64,000 nt of DNA. Origin: an uncultured Alphaproteobacteria bacterium. Its GTDB lineage: Bacteria; Pseudomonadota; Alphaproteobacteria; Rs-D84; CACZYB01. How positions within the stretch are numbered: the stretch's first letter is position 1; each line of letters opens with the position of its first letter. The notes below the pieces were generated by a model. It saw only the letters and a list, made by a program, of their open reading frames with translations. It searched no databases and was not told the DNA's origin. Shown here one piece after another: positions 2,160 through 56,034 of this stretch. The translations under genes were made by a program, and so were the position numbers. The stretch is from positions 11,003-75,002 of the forward strand of contig CALXYK010000007.1 in the NCBI GenBank assembly GCA_944392955.1, in the 5' to 3' direction.

Positions 2160-3182
2160 TTACAATTTCAAAAACCTCTTTTTAAACTTCACCCAAAAAC
2201 TTTCTGGTTGAAAGTCATATAGTTTTTGTAATACAGGATCATCAAAATAAAATCCCTTATATCCCTTTAATTTTCTTAATACCTTTAAGAATTTTTTATA
2301 TTCTTTATGATCTTTTTCCCATACTGTATATTTATCATATTCTTCACATATCTTAGAAACCTTATAATTTCTAAATCTCCAAAAAGTAGCCGTTGCACCT
2401 AATTTATTTGCAAGTTTTACAAATTTTACCATCTCACGGTAATTCAAAGAACTTACAACAAACATAATACTAAAATATGCAATTTCTTCCTTTTTCAAAA
2501 GTGATGAAATCCATTTTAAATTTTTTATCACCCTATCAAAATTACTTCCCCTTACTATTTTATCATATACCTTCTTGGATGCCGCATGAACAGATACAAA
2601 CACCCCTAACATTTTTCCTAGTACAGCGAAATCACGACAATGTTCCTCATCAAACAATAAACCATTACTATGTAAAATAAACTTAACATCCGGCTTTATT
2701 TCTAATATCTTCGTAACTAATAATTTCAAATGACTACTAACAAAAAATTCCCCTCCTCCATTCATATAAATTGTTTTAGCATTTTTACATATATCAATAA
2801 ATCTATCCATAAATTTATTAAAATATTCTGTATTTTCTTTTGATTCATAAATAAAATCATCTCTACACATAACACATCTAACATTACATGCTTTAACATG
2901 ACAAAACTGTATAACCTCTGGATAAGGAGGATATAAGTCCGGTAATATATCATCTTCAAAAAATTTTCTACACAAAGAAAAATCACACCCTTCATATGTT
3001 TCCTTAATAACAGATTTTCTAAATTCTACTGCCTTTTCCCCGTACCATATTTCTTCAAAAGTAGATTCAAAAATATTTCCTATACACTCCTTTTGCGAGC
3101 CTGAACAACAAAACCAACAATCACCACTTAATTCTATAGAAAACTTCACAAACGGGGCTTTACAACAAGTAAATTCGGACAT
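2160..3182 (-). CDS. radical SAM protein, paralog B (tandem duplicate of paralog A)
   Basis: Same CX3CX2C and GGGE motifs and the same N-terminal Cys-rich SPASM-like domain. Strong SD AGGAGGAGG lies inside the last codons of mnmG, so it is co-transcribed with mnmG. Confidence 0.75.
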   Translation of the reverse strand: MSEFTCCKAPFVKFSIELSGDCWFCCSGSQKECIGNIFESTFEEIWYGEKAVEFRKSVIKETYEGCDFSLCRKFFEDDILPDLYPPYPEVIQFCHVKACNVRCVMCRDDFIYESKENTEYFNKFMDRFIDICKNAKTIYMNGGGEFFVSSHLKLLVTKILEIKPDVKFILHSNGLLFDEEHCRDFAVLGKMLGVFVSVHAASKKVYDKIVRGSNFDRVIKNLKWISSLLKKEEIAYFSIMFVVSSLNYREMVKFVKLANKLGATATFWRFRNYKVSKICEEYDKYTVWEKDHKEYKKFLKVLRKLKGYKGFYFDDPVLQKLYDFQPESFWVKFKKRFLKL

Positions 3183-11072: not shown

Positions 11073-11774
11073 CTACCAGTTATCACAAATTGAATTAACC
11101 CGTAAATATTCTGTATCAGTATCTAATTGAGAATTTTGTTCTAATATTTCCGTTTCCATTTTTTCCCTCAAAAGTAATATATTTGTATTTTCTGAAATAA
11201 TTTTATCTATTTTCTTAGCAACAACTTTTTCTGTAACATATTTTGGGAAATACATAACACCTAAATCATCAATTATATTTCTAAGTTCTTTTGCCAATAA
11301 ATTTCCATAATATTTAAGTTCTTTTTGATAAACATTTACATGTTGTTTCTCATGATTTTTAATCGCATTATATTCACAACTATCAACAGGATACTTACTA
11401 TCTATCAAAACATCTAATGATGGATAGCCAACAAAAAAATCAATAGAAGATAAATTTACACATACACCATCACCAACCTTATACCTGTCAAAGTCAAAAT
11501 CATATTTTATCTCTATATTTGCAACGGTAACTCCCATAGTTTTATCTGGATTATGTAATTTATCAAATTTTAAGATTTCACTTTTGGGAACAGATTTATA
11601 TAAGACATTACCATAATTTACCCTAGTTATTATATTAGGTTCTCTATAAAATCTATCACAACTTTCACCCGCCCAAACAGACAAAGAAAAAAAACAAAAC
11701 CCAGTGATTTTGATAAATTTTGGTATAATTTTATTTAAACGAGTCAAGATAAACCTCCACAAATTTATCTCCAT
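11073..11774 (-). CDS. DUF922-like putative secreted Zn metalloprotease (HExxH)
   Basis: N-terminal hydrophobic signal-like segment. HEKQH zinc-binding motif. The ORF overlaps the virB4 3' end by 44 nt, so the start is uncertain. Confidence 0.45.
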   Translation of the reverse strand: MEINLWRFILTRLNKIIPKFIKITGFCFFSLSVWAGESCDRFYREPNIITRVNYGNVLYKSVPKSEILKFDKLHNPDKTMGVTVANIEIKYDFDFDRYKVGDGVCVNLSSIDFFVGYPSLDVLIDSKYPVDSCEYNAIKNHEKQHVNVYQKELKYYGNLLAKELRNIIDDLGVMYFPKYVTEKVVAKKIDKIISENTNILLLREKMETEILEQNSQLDTDTEYLRVNSICDNW

Positions 11775-14178
11775 GAAGTTTTCTTAACTCTTCTACAAGT
11801 AATACCTGCTTTCTTCCACTATTAAATATCTGTAAATAAGGACCAAGTCCGGACAAATCAACATTCAATATAACAGATTCATCAATAGAAGGTTTTCTAA
11901 ACAATATTGCATACTTTAAGTCTTTAAAAATTTTACCTTGAATAAATGCCATTTCTTTCGGTGTCAGATTCCAACTTTCGTAATCTTCTACCATTGCCTG
12001 TGTATTACGGAAAAATATTTGTGTCTGACATTGGCCACGAATAACCTCACCTATACCAAGTTTATCTAAAACATTAGGTTGTTGGAATGCAGCAAGGTAT
12101 GCTTGTCTCTTTTTTCTACCTTCTTGAAGACCTATAACAAAATTATTTCTAAACTCAGGATTTTGCAACATAGGCGCTGTTTCATCAATAATAATCAAGG
12201 ATGGATCGCCTGTTCTCCCTGTTATATTTTGTATTCTATTCATAATATAACTTACCACTGCCGGAGCCAAAGTATTATCCTCAAATATATAAGTAAAATC
12301 AAATGCAGTAAATCTATTAGAAAGATCTAAATTATCTGACTCACTATTAAATAACAAACCATACTGAGAATCGTCAACCCAACGGAACAACTCTCTCCTC
12401 ATTTTTCCAGCGGGAGAAAAACAGGATTTGTATAAATTCTTCAAATTTCTTTTGCTTGGCTCTAAGTAATCAAATGCAGTAGTAACAGCTCTTGCAATTT
12501 CTGCCTCACTTGTTGCATCATTTACCAAAGTAATTTCTTTCAACCATCGTCTTAAAAAGGCCCTATTCTCAGGATTATCTTCTATTCTAAAAGGATTTAA
12601 ATGAGCAATAGTTCCCGTTTTTTTAACATCTTTATCCTTTGTATCACCCTCAAAATTTATATAGGACCCACCAATAGCATAAGTAAATATTTCTGCACCT
12701 CTATACCTATCAAAAAAGAAACACTTTAAATCTTTAAATCTTAATGCCTGTCCTGCCAAGAAAGAATATAGGGTTGTTTTACCCTGCCCCGTAGGGCCAA
12801 TTGCAACTGTATGAGCAACCGCAGTAGGTTCTTCCGACACATGAAATTCAAACTGATATGCCGTTCCTTGATAAGTAGGGAAAATTGTAATAGGACCTTC
12901 TCCCCAATCACACTTTGACAATCCCCCAGGTTGCCTTTCAAAATTAAAACTTGCCGCAACAGCCCTAGAAAGCATCTTATACATTCTAGGATATTTATCA
13001 TAAGTAGGGAATTGTGAAAACCAAGATGCTTGTGCCACCCAACCTTCACGAACAGGCGTAATTCCATAAAGACGACAAATTTTTTCTATCTCAAAAACAG
13101 CCTTATCTAAATCTTCCAATTTTTCAGCACTAACAAAAAAAGTTTCCGCATAATTAACCAAAGTTTGATGATCTTCGTCCCCCTGCTCTATCAATGCTAA
13201 CGCATCATCAAATTGCCTTAATACATCATAAGAAAATGTAGTAGAACTTGCCATCCTGCGCTGATTTATTAAAACCATTTGGGCTTTTAATTTTGAAATA
13301 GGAAATAAATTATGCAAAACAGTAATTTCAAAATTTTGTGATAATATATCTGATAACATCTGTTCATCTACGGAATTTGCTTGTTGTTTAATACCAACAA
13401 CAGACATATATTTAGTTTTATTTCCTGAACTAAACCTTATATAACCTTTATTACTAAAAAATACTTCATCAGATACCAATAATTCGGAAACACTATCATA
13501 AATTATATTATCCGAACTAGGATGAGGACGACTGATAGGATTTATTATATGAGCGAAGAATGTAAGTGGGCTTTCGGAATCTTTACTTCCCTCTTTTAAT
13601 ATTTTTACCCCAAAATTTGATAAGATAGCCTCTAAATTAGAGGTTGCCGTATCTAAATCCTTTAAGGCATCCTTTCTATCATTAACAGAAATAACTATAT
13701 AATGAGAATTAACAAATATCTCACTTTGTGCTTCATTCCACTTTTCGCTAATGTCCTTTAATATTTTATTATAATTATTTACTAACTTTTCATTATTTGT
13801 CTTCTCTCTTATAGTAAAAATTCTAGTTTCCACACTAATTTCAGAAAGACTATCAATCCATTTTTTCCGCTCTTCTAAAAAGTTCTGTATAACTTCTCTT
13901 TTTGCAAAAGCAATTGAAACACCCGAAACTTTAAAAACCCTTAACAAGGTTCCATTTAAACATAATACAGTCTTCTTATCATCTAAAATTCTTTCAAAAG
14001 GTAAATAATCAACCAACCTAGTATCAAAAGGTTTTGGTAAAAATAAGTTCATTTTCTGAGATAAAAAAACTACTACCAAAACAGATACAGCAATAACTGC
14101 AATTACTAAAAACAAGTAATATACATTTGAAAGACCAGATACTAAAACATTTTCTAAATTAAATTCCATATTCTGCAC
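11731..14178 (-). CDS. virB4: type IV secretion system ATPase VirB4
   Basis: 815 aa. Walker A GPTGQGKTT. N-terminal TM segment. Immediately downstream of virB3. Confidence 0.88.
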   Translation of the reverse strand: MQNMEFNLENVLVSGLSNVYYLFLVIAVIAVSVLVVVFLSQKMNLFLPKPFDTRLVDYLPFERILDDKKTVLCLNGTLLRVFKVSGVSIAFAKREVIQNFLEERKKWIDSLSEISVETRIFTIREKTNNEKLVNNYNKILKDISEKWNEAQSEIFVNSHYIVISVNDRKDALKDLDTATSNLEAILSNFGVKILKEGSKDSESPLTFFAHIINPISRPHPSSDNIIYDSVSELLVSDEVFFSNKGYIRFSSGNKTKYMSVVGIKQQANSVDEQMLSDILSQNFEITVLHNLFPISKLKAQMVLINQRRMASSTTFSYDVLRQFDDALALIEQGDEDHQTLVNYAETFFVSAEKLEDLDKAVFEIEKICRLYGITPVREGWVAQASWFSQFPTYDKYPRMYKMLSRAVAASFNFERQPGGLSKCDWGEGPITIFPTYQGTAYQFEFHVSEEPTAVAHTVAIGPTGQGKTTLYSFLAGQALRFKDLKCFFFDRYRGAEIFTYAIGGSYINFEGDTKDKDVKKTGTIAHLNPFRIEDNPENRAFLRRWLKEITLVNDATSEAEIARAVTTAFDYLEPSKRNLKNLYKSCFSPAGKMRRELFRWVDDSQYGLLFNSESDNLDLSNRFTAFDFTYIFEDNTLAPAVVSYIMNRIQNITGRTGDPSLIIIDETAPMLQNPEFRNNFVIGLQEGRKKRQAYLAAFQQPNVLDKLGIGEVIRGQCQTQIFFRNTQAMVEDYESWNLTPKEMAFIQGKIFKDLKYAILFRKPSIDESVILNVDLSGLGPYLQIFNSGRKQVLLVEELRKLHGDKFVEVYLDSFK

Positions 14179-14180
14179 CT

Positions 14181-14474
14181 CTATGCTGTAAATTTATTTC
14201 CATTTTCGCTCAACAAATTTTTAGTATGAGCCCTAATATTAGTCCTAGATGCAATAATATTATCAATATGAGGTTCTCTTTTACCTATTAAAACACACAA
14301 AAAATGTAAAACAACAAACGAAACAATACTCACCCAAATATACACACCTAAGTTAAGTATTAACAGAAGTAACATAAGCACAACAGAAACAGCCACATTC
14401 ATCATAAATAATCCGAACGGAGCATAAAAAATCTGCATAGGTTGAGCCACCGATTTAAGTAATTCCTCTTTCAA
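14181..14474 (-). CDS. virB3: type IV secretion system protein VirB3
   Basis: 97 aa with two TM helices. LLKSVAQPMQIFYAPFGLFMMN resembles the VirB3 L.rP..f.GVP motif. Abuts virB4. Confidence 0.7.
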   Translation of the reverse strand: MKEELLKSVAQPMQIFYAPFGLFMMNVAVSVVLMLLLLILNLGVYIWVSIVSFVVLHFLCVLIGKREPHIDNIIASRTNIRAHTKNLLSENGNKFTA

Positions 14475-14544: not shown

Positions 14545-15105
14545 TTAGGAAGATAGTTTTTTATTTTTTCTTTGTAGACGATATCTTTCATACCTAAGTG
14601 TTATTCTGTAACCAATAATAGAAGAAATTATTGCCCATGGTAAACAACCTACTGCCATAGATACCCCCCAATCCTTTAACAAAATTTTAAATAGCAATAG
14701 CCATTTATCAACAAAACTTAATTCACCCATAAATGTATCTGTTACTATATGAGAAAGGCTTTCATACCCACTACTACTAGCAAAGTTTCCTCTCATTATC
14801 TGTCCTGTTATATAGAATACATAATAGGCAGGAATCATAGTAAATACATTTGTAAGCCATGTCCAAGCAATACCTAAAACCAACGAAAAATCTATTTTTA
14901 GAATACGTCTAAAAAATATCCAAGTCATAAAAACCAACCACATCTGTATTCCAACAAGTGGGGTCATAGCCCAAAAAAGCCCAACACCAACCCCCATCGC
15001 CTTCACCTCTGGTGGTAAATTAAGCCTTAACATAGGAACAACTAACCTCATTTTAAAGATTCTTTTTAAATTTTCCCAAAATGTGTATTTTTTATGCCTA
15101 GCCAT
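14545..15105 (-). CDS. DUF2062 family membrane protein
   Basis: N-terminal [17 protein letters not shown] followed by [24 protein letters not shown], typical of DUF2062. Confidence 0.55.
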
Positions 15106-15138: not shown

Positions 15139-15213
15139 TGGCTGGGGTGGCTGGATTCGAACCAACGAATGGCGGTACCAGAAACCGCTGCCTTACCGCT
15201 TGGCGACACCCCA
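15139..15213 (-). tRNA. tRNA-Gln (anticodon CUG)
   Basis: 75-nt cloverleaf. Reverse complement is TGGGGTGTCGCCAAGCGGTAAGGCAGCGGTTTCTGGTACCGCCATTCGTTGGTTCGAATCCAGCCACCCCAGCCA, closely matching E. coli tRNA-Gln. CCA is encoded. Confidence 0.85.
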
Positions 15214-15263
15214 ACAATGATTAATAAATTATAAAATAATAATACATAAGTCAAGTTTAAGGT

Positions 15264-15998
15264 TTATTTTTTATCAAATTTTATCTTTGCCAAACAAAAA
15301 TCAATACTTTTATCATTATTTGATAACAAAAAATTTGAAGAATTACCTACTATATTACTTCTTACTAAAATCTTATCATCAGATAGTATTGCAGATTTTT
15401 TAAAATCAACCACAATATCAGATATATTAAAATCCGAATTCAACTTTTTAAACAGATTATCCTCTATCAAAGAGATATATACCGCATTATTCACATGATG
15501 ATTAACATCTACATCATCATAACGTAATATCTCAGAGGTACAAAATTCATCTGAAATATCAATTGATAATTTTTCTAAATCTACTCCTAAACTTTCACCA
15601 AATTGAATACTGGAACAATCAAACATACTTTTTATATTAACAGGTTTAAAATTAACTAAATCAACCATAACCCATTGACTAACTGCCTTAACTAATACAT
15701 TATTTTCAGCATCTTTAACAATAAATTCCCTTAATCCCATAGGCCCAATAAATTTACTAGGCCAAGTTTCTATGGAAATCTTAGTTTTTAATTGTGGTAA
15801 TTTATCAATAATAACATGATACTTTGAACAGACCCAAGCACAATTTTTACTTATACATTCTTCATACCCAAGTCCCAATTTATCAGCATGATCACCTGCT
15901 AATTCTTGAAAATAATCAAACAATGTTTTAAGTTTCATAGAACCAAACTGATTACATTGATAAGTTTTTAATTCAAATTTTTCGCTAAACTTCAACAT
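15264..15998 (-). CDS. acyl-ACP thioesterase (FatA/FatB-like, PF01643-type double hotdog)
   Basis: About 244 aa. Signature DVDVNHHVNNAVY (the NxHVNN motif) in the second hotdog half. Confidence 0.6.
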   Translation of the reverse strand: MLKFSEKFELKTYQCNQFGSMKLKTLFDYFQELAGDHADKLGLGYEECISKNCAWVCSKYHVIIDKLPQLKTKISIETWPSKFIGPMGLREFIVKDAENNVLVKAVSQWVMVDLVNFKPVNIKSMFDCSSIQFGESLGVDLEKLSIDISDEFCTSEILRYDDVDVNHHVNNAVYISLIEDNLFKKLNSDFNISDIVVDFKKSAILSDDKILVRSNIVGNSSNFLLSNNDKSIDFCLAKIKFDKK

Positions 15999-16013
15999 AA
16001 CAACCTCATTTAA

Positions 16014-16655
16014 TCAAAGATTTTTTTCAAATTTATTATGCATACATTTTATAATAGTTTTATGTATACCCGTAGTAATATCATAATATATATGTCTACC
16101 ATCACGCCTAGATACAACAAAACCATCATCTTTTAGTCGTTTTAAATATTGAGATAATTTCATTTGTTCTATATTAACACCCTTTGAAATATCAGAAACA
16201 CAACTTTCACCAAAAATAGCTAAGAACTCTAAAATACGCATTTTATCAATATGACAAAATAATTTTATTTGGTTAGCGACCATCATAGTAAAATCTCTTG
16301 GCAAAATAGCTTTGTAATTATCTACTAAAAAATCATAAGAATTAGCAATATAACCATACAATTTTCTGATACAATTAAACAAACTTGCAGGATATTCTCC
16401 ATCTAATGAGTAAAAGATAAATTTACCCTTTCTTTCACAACGAACCAAACCAGCATCTTTTAATTTTTTTAAATTCTGTGAAACTATCAGTTGTTCTTCT
16501 TTTATAGATTTTGCAATATTTAATACCGAAGAAGTTTGATAAATATCCAAAAATTCTACTATCCTTAACCTTATAGGATGTCCCAAATATGAAACTCCTT
16601 TAACTGCTTTTTTCATTAAATTTATAGGCAATTGTTTTTTCATTTCTTCACCCAA
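16014..16655 (-). CDS. transcriptional regulator with two tandem ArsR/SmtB-type winged-HTH domains
   Basis: Two repeats of the H.IRLrIvEFL...L..L.kaGlV pattern, at residues about 25-100 and 125-200. Confidence 0.55.
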   Translation of the reverse strand: MGEEMKKQLPINLMKKAVKGVSYLGHPIRLRIVEFLDIYQTSSVLNIAKSIKEEQLIVSQNLKKLKDAGLVRCERKGKFIFYSLDGEYPASLFNCIRKLYGYIANSYDFLVDNYKAILPRDFTMMVANQIKLFCHIDKMRILEFLAIFGESCVSDISKGVNIEQMKLSQYLKRLKDDGFVVSRRDGRHIYYDITTGIHKTIIKCMHNKFEKNL

Positions 16656-16779
16656 TAAGTATTATATATAACAATACTCCGAAGAAAATATTTTTCAATA
16701 TATTTATAAATTTTTACACTAAAAAAGAAACCTTAGAAAATATATTTGATATAATAAAAAAAATCTAGCTAACAGACTT

Positions 16780-16854
16780 TGGCTGGGGTGGCTGGATTCG
16801 AACCAACGAATGGCGGAACCAAAACCCGCTGCCTTACCACTTGGCGACACCCCA
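16780..16854 (-). tRNA. tRNA-Gln (anticodon UUG)
   Basis: 75 nt. Differs from the 15139..15213 copy at about five positions including the anticodon (TTTTGGT loop). CCA is encoded. Confidence 0.85.
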
Positions 16855-16914: not shown

Positions 16915-17127
16915 TCAATCAATTATACTAAATCTATCTACTAATACACCATTTATATCTTTTACTTTCTCACTAAACATAACCAAAGGCCTTGCCCAAA
17001 TTTTACCATCACTAACTGATTTATATATAACTAAATCTTCCATAGTTTCTGTATGCTTAGCAAATGTAATTATCTCATAAACATTTCCTTTATAATGTTT
17101 ATATTTTTTACCTATTTCTACCGACAT
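16915..17127 (-). CDS. DUF1653 family protein
   Basis: YKHYKGNVYEI...AKHTET...VIYKS pattern. 70 aa. Overlaps the upstream Nudix gene by 10 nt. Confidence 0.55.
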   Translation of the reverse strand: MSVEIGKKYKHYKGNVYEIITFAKHTETMEDLVIYKSVSDGKIWARPLVMFSEKVKDINGVLVDRFSIID

Positions 17128-18758: not shown

Positions 18759-19562
18759 TTATGCAACTTGTTGTAAAAGATCATTTTTATTTAAAAATTC
18801 AGCAGCTAAATTTATATAAGCTTGACTTCCCATACAATCTAAATCATATAAAATAACTGGTTTTCCATGAGAAGGAGCCTCTGAAATTCTAACATTTCTA
18901 GGAATAACTGTATTAAATACAAGTTCACCAAAACATTTTCTTACATCATCTTCTACAAGTTCTGATAATTTATTTCTTCTATCATACATAGTAAGTAATA
19001 CACCTTCTATTTGTAAATTTTTATTAAAATTTTGTTGAACAAGTTGTATTGTGTTCATAAGATGACTTACTCCTTCTAATGCAAAAAATTCACATTGTAA
19101 AGGAATCATAACAGAGTCAGAAGCACACAAAGCATTTAATGTTAAGAATCCCAAAGCAGGTGGGCAATCTATTAAAATATAATCATATCCGGCTAAAAAC
19201 GAATTTTTTTCAAATAAATGTCTTAATTTTAATGTTTTATCATCTATATTTGATAATTCTATTTCTGCTGCTGATAAATCTATAGAAGCAGGAATTACAT
19301 CAAGATTTTTTATTTTTGTTGTATGTATTGCTTCGTGAAAATTATTTTTATTAAATAAAAGAGAATAAATATCTTTTATTCTATCATCTTGTTCTATACC
19401 TAAACCTGTGCTTGCATTTCCTTGTGGATCAAAGTCTATAACTAAAACTTTTTTATCAACAGTTGCAAGTGCAGTTGCTAAATTTATAGCAGTTGTTGTT
19501 TTTCCAACCCCGCCTTTTTGATTAGTTATTGATATTATTTTTGTATTTTGAAATATATTCAT
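18759..19562 (-). CDS. parA: chromosome partitioning ATPase ParA
   Basis: Deviant Walker A KGGVGKTT. Length 267 aa. Confidence 0.9.
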   Translation of the reverse strand: MNIFQNTKIISITNQKGGVGKTTTAINLATALATVDKKVLVIDFDPQGNASTGLGIEQDDRIKDIYSLLFNKNNFHEAIHTTKIKNLDVIPASIDLSAAEIELSNIDDKTLKLRHLFEKNSFLAGYDYILIDCPPALGFLTLNALCASDSVMIPLQCEFFALEGVSHLMNTIQLVQQNFNKNLQIEGVLLTMYDRRNKLSELVEDDVRKCFGELVFNTVIPRNVRISEAPSHGKPVILYDLDCMGSQAYINLAAEFLNKNDLLQQVA

Positions 19563-19722
19563 TTTTCCTCCTAAAAGATACTAACTATAAATAAAAATAC
19601 ACTTTTAAAAAGTATATTTCAATATATTTTTAAATTTTTTTATAGTTTAAAAGAATAATTTTATATTACAAAGTAATAAAAATAACATTTAACATTTTGT
19701 TTTTACTAATAATATTAAAGAT

Positions 19723-19738
19723 TGTTTCATGTGAAACA
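19723..19738. promoter_or_regulatory. parS-like centromere site TGTTTCATGTGAAACA
   Basis: 16-bp near-palindrome matching the parS consensus tGTTNCACGTGAAACa with one central mismatch. Lies between rsmG and parA. Confidence 0.6.
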
Positions 19739-19773
19739 ATTTTAGTTAAAAATAAATTTTTGTATAAAATATT

Positions 19774-20334
19774 TTATTTTTTATAAATATTATAAATTTT
19801 TACTATATATCCATTGTTTTTTTTGAATAATTCATAATCAAAATACCAGTTATTTTTTGCAATATCTATCTCTTTATTTATATTTAGGCCCTTTAATAAA
19901 AACATTTCAGTATTTTTATTTATGATACTATTAACTAAACTTAAAAAATTATCTAACGGAGCAAAAGCTCTACCTATTATACAATTTATATTGTTATTAT
20001 TTATATTTTCAATTCTATCATTTATAATATTAGTATCAGTGTTATATATTCTTTTTATCTCTTTTAAGAAAAAACATTTCCTTTCATCGGATTCAACACA
20101 AGTAATATTTTTTATACCATAAACTGATAAAACCATACCAGGAAAACCGGCTCCGCTACCTATATCATATATACTATTTTTATTTTTTACAAAATCATAT
20201 AAAGATAAACTATCTAAAAAATGTCTATCCCATAAATTATTTACAGAATTTGGACTTATTAGATTTATACTTTTTTGCCATTTTAGTAAAGTATTTATAT
20301 AATTATCAAAAAGTTTTTTATCAAATTTATTCAT
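19774..20334 (-). CDS. rsmG: 16S rRNA (guanine527-N7)-methyltransferase RsmG (GidB)
   Basis: SAM-binding motif DIGSGAGFPG. Conserved rsmG-parA-parB gene order. Confidence 0.9.
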   Translation of the reverse strand: MNKFDKKLFDNYINTLLKWQKSINLISPNSVNNLWDRHFLDSLSLYDFVKNKNSIYDIGSGAGFPGMVLSVYGIKNITCVESDERKCFFLKEIKRIYNTDTNIINDRIENINNNNINCIIGRAFAPLDNFLSLVNSIINKNTEMFLLKGLNINKEIDIAKNNWYFDYELFKKNNGYIVKIYNIYKK

Positions 20335-20407
20335 CTTTTATACTTTTTTTTTAATCAAAATTATGATACAATTATTACAATAATATAATAAAGGAATATA
20401 GAATATT

Positions 20408-22138
20408 ATGAATAATAAAACAATAAAAAATTGTATATCTTATATTTTTGTTATTCTTTTTATATCATTTATTATCTTTATAAAATTTTTTGAAGAAGGT
20501 GATATAAAAGAAATTAAGAAAGGTGTAATTAGTAATATACCCGAAAATAAATATGGGTTATATTTATCAAGTTTCCATGCAAATCAAATAGCAGATTATG
20601 GAAGATTGTTATCTTTTTATGATGAAGCGGTAAAACAAAATGATAAAGATTTTCTTGGAAAATTACTGGTTTTACATTCTATGAATAGCAATAGTGATGA
20701 TATATTTAAATTAGCACAAGAAGAATACAAAAAAGATAAAACCAATATAATTCCTGTTATGTATATTAGTAATCATTATTTTGTGAAAAAAGACTATAAA
20801 AAATCTATGGAATTATTAAATAGTATAAAAGGTAAAGGTGATAATTTTGTTATAAAGTTATTAAAATCATGGGTTCTTATGGGACAAAAACAATATGATC
20901 AAGCAAAATTATTATTAGAAAAAGATTTAGATGATGATAAAAATAAAATTTTTAAAAAATACTTATTGATGCATTTGGCTGCTGAAAATGAAATATCAGG
21001 AGATATAAAAAAGGCAAAACAACTTTATGAAGAAATTTTAAAATCTGAAAATATCAATTTATTTGATTTAGAAAATATATCAGCATTTTTTATAAAACAG
21101 AAAGATAAAAACAAAGCAATAGAAATAATAAAGGATTATTACAAAAAATCGCCGGATTCAGTATCTGCTTTATCATTTTTAAAAAGTATAGAAAATAACA
21201 CTTATATACCATCAGGAATAGATAGTGTAAATAAGGGTATGGCAAAGGCTATTTTTGATGTATCTAATATAATTAACTTTGTATTTACTTCTACACAAGA
21301 TTTAACACTTATGTATTTATCTATGATAATAGAATTATATCCAGAGTTTTATATGGCAAAATTGATGCAAGCCGAATTATATAAAAGTATAGGTAATTCA
21401 GAACTATTTTTAAGTATTACTGATTCAATTCCTACCACACATTATCTATATATAACAGGGCAATTAAATAAGATTTTATTTTCATCTAATGAAAATAACG
21501 ATTATAATACTATATCAAATATGTATGAACAATTAGCGTTAAAATATCCGGATTATCCGCAAATATATATAAGAATGGGTAATTTTTATAGGGAAAAGTA
21601 TGATTATAAAAAATCTTTAGAGGCTTTTTCACAGGCAATAAAATATGCAAGTGATAATACTCTATTATCAAATATTTATTTTGCTAAGGCTCAGGTTTAT
21701 GATATATTAAAAGACAAGGAAAATACAAAATTAAATCTGGAAAAAGCATATAAGCTTAATAATAAAACCGCACCTTTCTTAAATTATTATGGTTATTTTT
21801 TAATCATAAACGAAATAGATATGGATAAGGGAATCTTACTAATTAGTGAAGCATTAACAAAAGATGCCTTTAATTCTTATTACTTAGATAGTTACGGCTG
21901 GGCTTTGTTTAAAAGAGGAGAAATAGAAAAAGCTATAAATATTCTTGAATTAGCAAAATCAATCAATCCGATAAATCCGGTTATTATAAATCATTTAGCC
22001 GATGCATATTGGGAAAACAACAGAAAGCAAGAAGCAATATACGAATGGCAAAAAGTTTTATCTTTAAAAAAATATGATAGTGTAACTGAGCCAATAGATT
22101 ATAAAGAAATCAAAAGAAAAATAAACAGAGGTTTATAA
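20408..22138 (+). CDS. TPR-repeat membrane-anchored protein
   Basis: N-terminal TM anchor. Multiple W-LG-Y/A..A...F..A TPR-like repeats. Confidence 0.55.
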   Translation: MNNKTIKNCISYIFVILFISFIIFIKFFEEGDIKEIKKGVISNIPENKYGLYLSSFHANQIADYGRLLSFYDEAVKQNDKDFLGKLLVLHSMNSNSDDIFKLAQEEYKKDKTNIIPVMYISNHYFVKKDYKKSMELLNSIKGKGDNFVIKLLKSWVLMGQKQYDQAKLLLEKDLDDDKNKIFKKYLLMHLAAENEISGDIKKAKQLYEEILKSENINLFDLENISAFFIKQKDKNKAIEIIKDYYKKSPDSVSALSFLKSIENNTYIPSGIDSVNKGMAKAIFDVSNIINFVFTSTQDLTLMYLSMIIELYPEFYMAKLMQAELYKSIGNSELFLSITDSIPTTHYLYITGQLNKILFSSNENNDYNTISNMYEQLALKYPDYPQIYIRMGNFYREKYDYKKSLEAFSQAIKYASDNTLLSNIYFAKAQVYDILKDKENTKLNLEKAYKLNNKTAPFLNYYGYFLIINEIDMDKGILLISEALTKDAFNSYYLDSYGWALFKRGEIEKAINILELAKSINPINPVIINHLADAYWENNRKQEAIYEWQKVLSLKKYDSVTEPIDYKEIKRKINRGL

Positions 22139-25611: not shown

Positions 25612-26268
25612 ATGAGTTCATTGAATTACTTTGATATAATAATAATGATTTTATTCTTAATAGTTTCATTTTCTGTGTATAAGACTTTAAAGTCAGATAA
25701 TCCCGATATGGATTTCCCTCCATTTCCAGATTCTAAAGGGCAATCTACCAAACTTATCAGGGTGTTAAAAACTCATAATAAGCAGGAATATTGTCTTGAT
25801 GATACTATTCAACCTGATACAGCAGAACAGAAAGTAGAAAAATTATTAAAGGTTGATAAAACATTTGATACTTTATCATTTATGCTACATGCAAAAGCGG
25901 AGTTTGAGTATATTTTAAAACATTTTTGTGAGAAAGACATGAAGTCTCTTAAATCAAAAATCTCTCAAAATGTTTACGATACTTTTGAAAATAGTATAAA
26001 AGAATTGGAAAAACATAAATATTCCATATGTTCGGAAATTATAAGATTTAAAAAAGTGGCGATAAAGGACATAAAAGTTGCTAAAAATTATGCAAATGTG
26101 ATAGTAGAATTTATAACAGAACAAACAGGTGTTATAAAGGATAATTCTGGTAAAATAATAAAAGGTGATGATAATAAAATAGATACAATAAAAGATGTTT
26201 GGTGTTTTTCTAAAAATTTAATATCTAAAAATTCACAGTGGGTACTAAGTGCTACAATAGAAGCTTAA
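25612..26268 (+). CDS. Tim44-like domain membrane protein (the conserved alphaproteobacterial neighbour of secB)
   Basis: N-terminal TM. Length about 218 aa. Divergent arrangement with secB. Confidence 0.45.
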   Translation: MSSLNYFDIIIMILFLIVSFSVYKTLKSDNPDMDFPPFPDSKGQSTKLIRVLKTHNKQEYCLDDTIQPDTAEQKVEKLLKVDKTFDTLSFMLHAKAEFEYILKHFCEKDMKSLKSKISQNVYDTFENSIKELEKHKYSICSEIIRFKKVAIKDIKVAKNYANVIVEFITEQTGVIKDNSGKIIKGDDNKIDTIKDVWCFSKNLISKNSQWVLSATIEA

Positions 26269-55254: not shown

Positions 55255-55262
55255 GTGGAATA

Positions 55263-56033
55263 ATGAACAATATTTACGAAGCAACGAAATTGATAGGAGA
55301 TACCTATTCAGAACAGATTAAAAATCAAAGTCCAGAAGTTATAAAATACTTAGTCCATAAGTTAAAACATACATTCGGAGTAAGTTATGAAATTATGAAT
55401 ATATTTTATGCTGAAAAAGATTTATATTCATCATTTTCAGATACAGAAAAGGAATTAGTAGAACTTTCAGGAATCCTTCATGATTTAGGAAGATTTTATC
55501 AACATTCAGATGGGCATATACTGGATAATCATATTTTTAATCACGGGAAATATGCAGTAGATTTATTATCCAAAATAGAAAGGTTTAATAATCCAATACT
55601 TTTATTTGCAATAGAATCTCATAATGGATTAGCAATAAATTACGATAATCCTTTTTATAAACAATTATCGGAACAGGATAAATATACAGCAATGCAAATC
55701 GCAAAATTATTAAGAGATGCAGATAAACTTGAAAACATAAAGTTTTTTATCTACAACGGTATGCCTGCATTAGTTGCAGATAATGATAAGGGGACATTAT
55801 CCGATTCGGTGAAAGAAGCATTAAAAAATCATAAGCAAGTTGATTATAAAATCATACAAACAAAAAGTGACAGGGTTACAAATGGTCTTTCTTGGATAAA
55901 TGATATATATTTTGACAGCACAAAAAAAATTATAAAAGATATTGGTTTTATAGAAAAGGGAATACAGGTTGCTAAATTATATGGTGCGACTGAGCAAGAT
56001 TGTGAATTTTTAAAGGAAGTCTTGGTGATATAA
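55263..56033 (+). CDS. HD-domain phosphohydrolase
   Basis: HDLGR...H...D motifs. ATG at 55263 preceded by GGTGGA SD. The upstream 35 codons in the ORF track are low-complexity N-runs. Confidence 0.6.
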   Translation: MNNIYEATKLIGDTYSEQIKNQSPEVIKYLVHKLKHTFGVSYEIMNIFYAEKDLYSSFSDTEKELVELSGILHDLGRFYQHSDGHILDNHIFNHGKYAVDLLSKIERFNNPILLFAIESHNGLAINYDNPFYKQLSEQDKYTAMQIAKLLRDADKLENIKFFIYNGMPALVADNDKGTLSDSVKEALKNHKQVDYKIIQTKSDRVTNGLSWINDIYFDSTKKIIKDIGFIEKGIQVAKLYGATEQDCEFLKEVLVI

Positions 56034-56034
56034 T

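Follow-up and report, generated by a model that had tools for sequence, protein, structure and literature searches.

A 64,000-nucleotide (nt) stretch of an uncultured, gut-associated alphaproteobacterium (CALXYK010000007.1, positions 11,003-75,002; 29.4% guanine plus cytosine, GC), hereafter called the window, contains two glutamine tRNA genes on the minus strand, tRNA-Gln(CUG) at 15139..15213 and tRNA-Gln(UUG) at 16780..16854, which bracket two further minus-strand genes. One of these (15264..15998) encodes a 244-residue protein assigned to the FatA/FatB-type acyl-acyl carrier protein (acyl-ACP) thioesterases, the other (16014..16643) a 209-residue regulator with two ArsR-type domains in one chain, named ArsR2 in the following. 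The segment is understood here, with good though not complete confidence, as a vertically inherited and ordinary part of the chromosome, featuring a conserved thioesterase and a local turnover of cargo genes. The thioesterase is the constant resident of the bracket while its companions change, which makes the DNA between the tRNA-Gln genes and next to them a small hot spot of gene turnover around this fixed gene. It is not an integrated island, although an earlier note on this DNA had regarded the pair as a cassette imported at a tRNA gene.

This understanding is supported by the gene order of relatives, all of which are represented by loci on metagenome contigs. A word-index search with the thioesterase gave 22 matches, of which 15 were full-length, 55-62% identical, and members of a tight clade derived from metagenomes of gut and rumen, with one of them being annotated as 'MAG: Alphaproteobacteria bacterium' (MAG, metagenome-assembled genome). 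In four relatives (L003, L091, L093, and L095), whose thioesterases are only 54-62% identical to that of the window, the order DUF1653, tRNA-Gln(UUG), thioesterase, tRNA-Gln(CUG), DUF2062, and VirB3/VirB4 is kept, and this flanking of the gene by the same two tRNA genes at such a distance argues against its recent acquisition. The locus L003 features RsmG, ParA, ParB, DUF1653, tRNA-Gln(UUG), the thioesterase, a 4HBT and an M78-like gene on the opposite strand, tRNA-Gln(CUG), a radical-SAM/SPASM gene, DUF2062, VirB3, and VirB4. L091 and L093 share an L003-like core, to which an ADP-ribosylglycohydrolase gene is added in L093, and L095 reads DUF1653, tRNA-Gln(UUG), DUF2798, thioesterase, tRNA-Gln(CUG), DUF2062, and VirB3. 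Likewise, on three short contigs (L090, L092, and L097) the thioesterase gene is followed by tRNA-Gln(CUG). Close orthologs in the same ParB to VirB4 synteny were thus found for the thioesterase in four relatives, whereas ArsR2 is specific to this site in this species, whose gene order, including the arrangement of ArsR2 and thioesterase, recurs identically in three other metagenome assemblies.

The companions of the thioesterase are ArsR2 here and 4HBT, M78-like, ADP-ribosylglycohydrolase, or DUF2798 genes in relatives, the M78/IrrE-like gene (about 170-180 codons) following the 4HBT gene in four loci (L003, L091, L092, and L093). This differing cargo could be counted in favor of an acquisition, as could the occurrence of ArsR2 at the tRNA-Gln site in this species only. 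The view of the interval as a variable site thus holds for the gene turnover and for ArsR2, but not for the thioesterase, which is fixed. Neither the 4HBT partner nor the M78-like, ADP-ribosylglycohydrolase, rubrerythrin, and FtsK genes of the relatives were found in the 64-kb window, in which only radical-SAM/SPASM paralogs were matched. These are two tandem genes (1101-2129 and 2160-3182, minus strand) that adjoin mnmG and are about 40% identical to the L003 gene (6364-7401) directly after tRNA-Gln(CUG). Besides, L097 (3248-4411) carries a HipA-family toxin kinase gene and a gene of 324 codons just past tRNA-Gln(CUG), which further indicates that accessory genes gather around this tRNA gene.

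The tRNA genes themselves are likewise conserved in this clade. ARAGORN recognized four tRNA genes in the window, including both tRNA-Gln genes, and the Rfam model RF00005 (gathering score 29) supported the predicted folds with 55.7 bits (CUG) and 56.4 bits (UUG), in agreement with the positions, strand, and identities previously proposed for them. Both are 75 nt long including the encoded CCA, differ from each other at five positions, and show the tRNA-Gln features U1-A72 and G73 with the 3' end ...CCCCA-G-CCA; the UUG gene of this species contains a G31-U39 pair. Orthologs of tRNA-Gln(CUG) occur in L001, L003, L090-L093, L095, and L097, those of tRNA-Gln(UUG) in L003, L091, L093, and L095, being identical or different at up to three positions in either case. 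As each isoacceptor is kept as a separate ortholog, the bracket is ancestral to the clade. This speaks against the second tRNA-Gln gene being a duplicated or carried-in attachment site, as does the similarity of the two genes, which stops 2-4 nt beyond the gene ends.

The anticodon loops UUCUGGU (CUG) and UUUUGGU (UUG) both contain G at position 37, as had been noticed before in comparison to the A37 of Escherichia coli. The observation is correct, but the feature is not unusual: G37 (TTTTGGT) is likewise present in tRNA-Gln of Sinorhizobium, Azospirillum, Sphingobium, and Methylobacterium (one gene aligned for each, taken from large alphaproteobacterial replicons), and A37 is found in E. coli and Priestia. 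G37 was accordingly dismissed as an anomaly. It would presumably be methylated to m1G37 by TrmD, a trmD gene being seen in the relative L006. The two isoacceptors represent an old pair serving CAA and CAG (UUG) and CAG (CUG), respectively; since CAG accounts for 24% of the glutamine codons in 24 window genes, the retention of both is unsurprising.

tRNA genes are classic integration sites, which might favor an import of the two genes, and a tRNA-bordered interval with differing gene content is indeed shared with tRNA-linked genomic islands. Such islands feature an integrase, a partial-tRNA repeat, and a compositional shift, whereas none of these is present here and a core gene is conserved in place. 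The GC content in sliding windows over the interval (0.25-0.29) is the same as in the flanks. With a GC content of 0.262, a GC content at third codon positions (GC3) of 0.160, and a synonymous-codon log-likelihood of -0.75 for the thioesterase gene, and 0.263, 0.150, and -0.76 for ArsR2, both genes deviate by no more than one standard deviation from the mean of 60 open reading frames of the window (0.295±0.037, 0.19±0.045, and -0.84±0.11). The comparison of GC content and codon usage with the flanks, recommended to detect foreign origin, therefore revealed genes that match their surroundings. No integrase or recombinase gene was found between 11.7 and 20.3 kb, where all open reading frames were assigned to other families by Pfam, and no att-like partial tRNA repeat was detected, the only meaningful direct repeat being the two complete, different tRNA-Gln genes. 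The lack of terminator-like sites and the chance-level frequency of promoter-like sites were likewise counted against an island. Recent horizontal transfer or an island was discarded as an explanation on the grounds of composition, synteny in relatives, and the lack of integrase and att repeat in this region.

The phylogeny of the thioesterase was a further issue, as an affinity outside the Alphaproteobacteria had been suspected. A scan of GTDB species representatives revealed at least 524 confirmed relatives. The window's own clade is not among the matches listed, the best of which is 38% identical, so that the synteny within the clade rests on metagenome contigs. The best 24 of these relatives all belong to gut or rumen alphaproteobacterial MAGs (27-38% identity), followed by Desulfobacteraceae, spirochaetes, Ignavibacteria, Bacteroidales, Bacillota, and others with at most 33%; none of the 24 gut-alphaproteobacterial loci has a tRNA-Gln gene adjoining the thioesterase gene. 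In a neighbor-joining tree of 90 sequences, the clade of the window (bootstrap 100) is sister to the 24 gut-alphaproteobacterial thioesterases, and a shared replacement of a catalytic glutamate, a derived character, supports this grouping. The Oscillospiraceae form the next branch, which could speak for an acquisition, but this link has a bootstrap of 19% and the nearest thioesterases are those of gut Alphaproteobacteria. Likewise, the ArsR2 family is distributed with about 60% identity across the same gut-alphaproteobacterial radiation. The notion that such a thioesterase is atypical for Alphaproteobacteria is thus correct for the class, in which the gene is unusual, but not for the gut radiation, of which it is typical, with a related one in 24 other gut or rumen species. 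Any transfer from anaerobes was ancient.

Still, several observations weigh against the reading of a conserved, vertically inherited thioesterase locus. The joint monophyly of the window clade with the gut Alphaproteobacteria reaches only 60% bootstrap. Furthermore, the pattern is broken in two relatives: in L096 the thioesterase gene stands directly before DUF2062, VirB3, and VirB4 with no tRNA gene in between, and in L001 it has moved to the vicinity of TIM and SurA genes, with tRNA-Gln(CUG) lying 3.4 kb off. The residue aligned with the catalytic glutamate of known enzymes is serine in all 11 clade sequences and proline, serine, or glycine in 20 of the 24 gut-alphaproteobacterial ones, with glutamate standing there in 46 of the 55 remaining bacterial sequences. 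Finally, the operon, promoter, and operator proposed for the two genes derive from their spacing and from motifs that are weak.

Regarding its family, the thioesterase is, judged from sequence comparison, a member of TE14, the ThYme family of FatA/FatB-type acyl-ACP thioesterases, which according to PMC3176148 is chiefly known from plants, Firmicutes, and Bacteroidetes. Both Pfam domains are found well above threshold, the N-terminal Acyl-ACP_TE (PF01643) with 8e-23 and 81 bits (cut-off 23.7) and Acyl-ACP_TE_C (PF20791) with 3e-10 and 40.8 bits (cut-off 21), and the catalytic stretch reads DVDVNHHVNN. The family profile matches seven solved acyl-ACP thioesterases over about 210-240 residues, i.e., nearly full length, with E-values of 1e-36 to 2e-29: plant FatA (7hqq, 1.3e-36), the Lactobacillus plantarum enzyme 2OWN, 8p8k, 4GAK, the Bacteroides thetaiotaomicron enzyme 2ESS, UcFatB (5X04), and 9MQF. 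The double-hotdog architecture and the DxNxHVNN motif are shared with plant FatA/FatB (7hqq, 5x04), 2OWN, and 2ESS. Other hotdog families were considered, since a different one had been named as an alternative, and were rejected: NCBIfam gave only sub-threshold matches to YbgC/FadM (24.8 bits vs. 68.7) and MenI (16.2 vs. 225), so that the initial assignment stands. In the passages of Jing et al. (2011; PMC3176148) considered here, the bacterial subfamilies E-J are listed without the taxa of this gut-alphaproteobacterial branch.

The residues D164, N166, H168, and N170 are invariant among 90 aligned sequences, and the N-terminal acyl-pocket domain is conserved as well. In UcFatB, the catalytic center is formed by D281/N283/H285/E319/C320 (PMC9659231, Table 2). 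Whereas plant and most bacterial TE14 enzymes possess a catalytic glutamate with a neighboring cysteine (RREC), located about 34 residues after the histidine in the YRRE-C motif, the window thioesterase features serine and alanine (KKSA), with E319-C320 of UcFatB aligning to S202-A203. Plant FatA and the L. plantarum enzyme likewise carry glutamate at the position of Ser202. Due to this serine, the real substrate and rate could differ. Nevertheless, the hydrolysis of acyl-ACP to a free fatty acid is the most likely activity predicted from the sequence, with a weak or modified activity owing to the missing glutamate being a real possibility. In the proposed mechanism, acyl-ACP from type II fatty-acid synthesis would be hydrolyzed to free fatty acid and holo-ACP by means of the Asp164/Asn166/His168 network.

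The second gene, ArsR2, confirms the earlier description of a regulator with two ArsR-type domains. The mechanical open reading frame (16014-16655) starts with TTG at 16655, and the likely start is the ATG at 16643, where all homologs begin. HTH_5 (7.8e-15) and the NCBIfam model HTH_metalloreg NF033788 (2.5e-32; 110.5 bits, cut-off 55) each match two stretches, corresponding to winged helix-turn-helix domains of residues ~1-105 and ~106-209. An identity of 33% (E 5e-17) remains between the halves, and the domain duplication has left a trace in the DNA as an internal repeat of 77 nt (16116-16192 and 16443-16519, minus strand; 73% identical and 327 nt apart). An AlphaFold2 (AF2) model calculated from an alignment of 31 sequences reached a predicted local distance difference test (pLDDT) of 91.6 and a predicted template modeling score (pTM) of 0.85, the latter being consistent with a fixed packing between the domains. 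According to this model, ArsR2 is probably an intramolecular pseudo-dimer in a single chain and, as a repressor, would bind an operator of two half-sites as a monomer.

Each half shares the canonical winged helix with the ArsR/SmtB repressors SqrR (6o8k), CzrA (1r1u), SmtB (1r1t), HlyU (3jth), and BigR (3pqj), which were the Foldseek matches of the halves (target-normalized template modeling score, TM, 0.7-0.86; root-mean-square deviation, rmsd, 1.4-2.8 Å). The members with known structures form homodimers from chains of about 100-120 residues, whereas ArsR2 consists of two diverged copies fused to one chain, and their sensing sites are replaced by one invariant cysteine per half, located in its last helix. 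These cysteines, C91 and C200, occupy equivalent positions and belong to the invariant residues of the family alignment, together with H22-P23 and H194. In neither half was an alpha-3 CxC motif found, and the alpha-5 Asp/His/His/Glu set of SmtB/CzrA and the cysteine pair of SqrR/BigR are likewise absent from ArsR2. A metal or a thiol-reactive signal would likely be sensed through C91, C200, and His194. SqrR was the best match in the PDB, and a persulfide sensor of the SqrR/BigR type was considered but rejected, as the cysteine pair is not conserved: a glutamate of ArsR2 stands opposite the cysteine of MIMCYLA in SqrR, and the aligned stretch does not reach as far as the C-terminal cysteine.

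By sequence and Foldseek comparison, no solved tandem ArsR structure was found in the PDB, and a literature search on tandem or single-chain ArsR proteins gave nothing relevant. The best full-length Foldseek match was SarS (1p4x), a two-domain SarA-family protein of Staphylococcus, which, like ArsR2, contains two homologous winged-helix domains mimicking a dimer in one chain. The poor superposition (TM 0.27, rmsd 17 Å, 12% identity) and the different winged helix-turn-helix family (SarA/MarR-like) point to an analogy rather than to homology of the fusion. More than 311 sequence clusters (90% identity) of ArsR2 homologs, with about 214 residues and 59-76% identity, were found, and when 1.84 billion representatives were searched exhaustively, further tandem ArsR relatives with identities as low as about 28% emerged. 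Among them, P0155 (41% identical) contains a CVC motif in its second half.

Outside this species, homologs of ArsR2 occur at differing positions. The gene lies between rubrerythrin and ftsK in L104, the closest relative of low GC content (29% GC; 76% identity), and adjoins rplS, trmD, and rimM in L006. In three independent gut-alphaproteobacterial loci of higher GC content (37-43%; L004, L008/L009, and L106) it stands beside a conserved Cys-rich cluster (L004:5036-5990, L008:4790-5899, and L106:1803-3289) without Pfam matches above threshold. The cluster comprises a protein of about 191 residues that ends in VDCCIE and is 73-76% identical between loci, a membrane protein of about 167 residues whose N-terminal part bears an NPACxVCT motif (present only in L008 and L106), and, restricted to L004 and L106, a thioredoxin/glutaredoxin-like protein of 122-128 residues that contains a CxxC motif. 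None of these genes was found in the 64-kb window. The cluster is probably a regulon of the ArsR2 family, connected to metal or thiol chemistry, and is a better regulon candidate than the thioesterase. As a side observation, genes next to an ArsR2 homolog (L004:6855-12645 and L005:984-6774) look like a diversity-generating retroelement, as they encode a reverse transcriptase (RVT_1) and an accessory protein of the bAvd-like type and include DUF2201/VWA-like members.

Among the alternatives, the one that fares best regards the adjacency of ArsR2 and thioesterase as functional, i.e., the regulator would sense a lipid or stress signal and control the thioesterase as a dedicated two-gene module. 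The spacer between the ArsR2 stop codon (TGA) and the ATG of the thioesterase comprises only 15 nt (15999..16013, minus strand) and carries the Shine-Dalgarno sequence GAGG, which ends 5 nt ahead of this ATG. Together with the common strand, this suggests co-transcription and translational coupling, and the two genes are stably arranged in this way in four samples of the species. Furthermore, a candidate promoter TTGAAA-16-TATTGT (16698-16671) upstream of ArsR2 overlaps at its -10 element with an imperfect palindrome GTATTGTTATATATAATAC (16677-16659; both within 16659..16698, minus strand), which is a possible autoregulatory operator as judged from the sequence. In DNA of such high AT content, promoter-like sites are no more frequent than expected by chance, and a terminator scan gave no terminator-like sites. 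TATA-rich palindromes are also present upstream of ArsR2 in L008 and L106, but a common operator motif was rejected, as only AT-rich TATA-type palindromes were obtained, indistinguishable from background. Against a dedicated module, no other genome examined shows this adjacency, and the ArsR2 gene, which sits 15 nt upstream of the thioesterase gene in this species only, is placed elsewhere in relatives, be it beside the Cys-rich three-gene cluster or between rubrerythrin and ftsK. Hence, the two genes are probably co-transcribed in this species, the link being species-specific, and a dedicated module is considered rather unlikely, at about one chance in a few.

In addition, one metagenome contig of 542 nt (P0016) encodes a predicted 143-residue protein in which residues 1-66 of the thioesterase are fused to residues 135-208 of ArsR2. 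The fusion corresponds to window positions 15801-15998 joined to 16017-16241 at a shared microhomology of 10 nt, TATTGATAAA ('..IDK'). Its order is the reverse of the genomic one, as expected for the junction of a tandem duplication or circle or for a chimeric assembly. As a single tiny contig, it is probably an artifact.

A somewhat less probable alternative, likewise rather unlikely, is that the thioesterase is not chain-terminating in vivo and acts on another thioester (acyl-CoA, an acyl-enzyme, or 3-ketoacyl-ACP leading to methylketones), or is a weak esterase by side activity. One indication is the mentioned Ser202, where most other bacterial sequences and plant FatA/FatB carry glutamate (PMC9659231). 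In addition, a YbgC-like 4HBT thioesterase gene, 67-92% identical between loci, convergently abuts the thioesterase gene in six of ten clade loci (L003:5199-5594, L090:779-1174, L091:8733-9128, L092:878-1276, L093:3943-4341, and L097:1094-1492), suggesting a shared pathway. According to PMC3176148, the acids set free in E. coli by bacterial TE14 enzymes span C4-C16 and are accompanied by 3-keto products, with many of these enzymes giving 3-ketoacyl products and methylketones. A plausible physiological analog is given by TesS of Streptococcus pneumoniae and TesE of Enterococcus faecalis, weak, constitutively present enzymes whose fatty-acid release from acyl-ACP feeds the Fak/PlsY route, and whose thioesterase activity was suspected to be a side reaction by the authors (PMC10449490). 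Opposed to an altered function are the fully conserved Asp/Asn/His network and acyl-pocket domain, the clear scores of both Pfam domains, and the lack of a comparable alternative family among the NCBIfam matches described above, YbgC/FadM included.

Conceivably, a distinct gut-alphaproteobacterial TE14 branch with replaced glutamate (Ser, Pro, or Gly) and changed mechanism or substrate might in this species be controlled by a single-chain, pseudo-dimeric ArsR repressor that senses a thiol-reactive or metal signal via an asymmetric interface site of Cys91, Cys200, and His194. This is doubtful; if true, it would link redox or metal stress to the release of fatty acids from ACP. The recent acquisition of a two-gene cassette from Firmicutes or Bacteroidetes, integrated at a tRNA-Gln gene, is very improbable and for the thioesterase largely refuted by its conserved bracket, its inconspicuous composition, and its gut-alphaproteobacterial relatives, even considering the distribution of known TE14 enzymes given in PMC3176148.

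The wider surroundings agree with the preferred reading of an ordinary chromosomal segment. All genes between 11.7 and 20.3 kb lie on the minus strand, in the transcription order RsmG/GidB, ParA, ParB, NUDIX hydrolase, DUF1653, tRNA-Gln(UUG), ArsR2, thioesterase, tRNA-Gln(CUG), DUF2062, VirB3, and VirB4. The conserved upstream flank is given by the DUF1653 protein (16915..17127, minus strand, by Pfam), which is preceded by NUDIX, ParB, ParA, and RsmG/GidB, and the downstream flank by the DUF2062 membrane protein (14545..15105, minus strand, likewise by Pfam), which is followed by VirB3 (14181-14474) and VirB4 (11731-14178) on the same strand. Farther out, BamB, the two radical-SAM/SPASM paralogs, MnmG, a HAD hydrolase, IleRS, and Hsp20 are encoded on one side, and a TPR protein, UvrD, a PlsC-type acyltransferase, SecB, a Tim44-like protein, RRF, UppS, and CdsA on the other. 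The neighborhood of thioesterase and ArsR2 is accordingly core chromosome, a block of housekeeping genes, and the lipid genes seen in the window are those for the PlsC-like protein and CdsA. The closest homologs of MnmG are 69-83% identical and include 'Alphaproteobacteria bacterium' MAGs, followed by 'Rickettsiales bacterium' with 61-63% and Kiloniella with 56-57%.

Some further features were observed at a distance from the bracket. An intergenic region of about 780 nt (55255-56034) contains four DnaA-box-like sites with one mismatch to TTATCCACA, at 55496, 55566, 55747, and 56034, and may represent the replication origin; a DnaA-box scan near gidB revealed no cluster in the parAB-gidB region at about 20.3 kb. 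There, at the divergent junction of rsmG/gidB (minus strand) and the gene of the 576-residue TPR protein (plus strand), a stretch of 16-20% GC (19500-20750) coincides with a local sign change of the GC skew. The Tim44-like domain protein (25612-26268, plus strand; 1.9e-31) adjoins secB in a conserved-looking arrangement.

For the biology of the genome, these results are of little consequence, as the thioesterase, G37, and the tRNA brackets are all typical of the lineage. Some modest value lies in the example of a small hot spot of gene turnover for which two tRNA-Gln genes serve as anchors. Moreover, the clade of acyl-ACP thioesterases without the catalytic glutamate in uncultured gut Alphaproteobacteria may be of interest for the engineering and classification of TE14 enzymes, and ArsR2 represents a widespread, uncharacterized family of single-chain tandem ArsR proteins with a distinctive conserved pair of cysteines.

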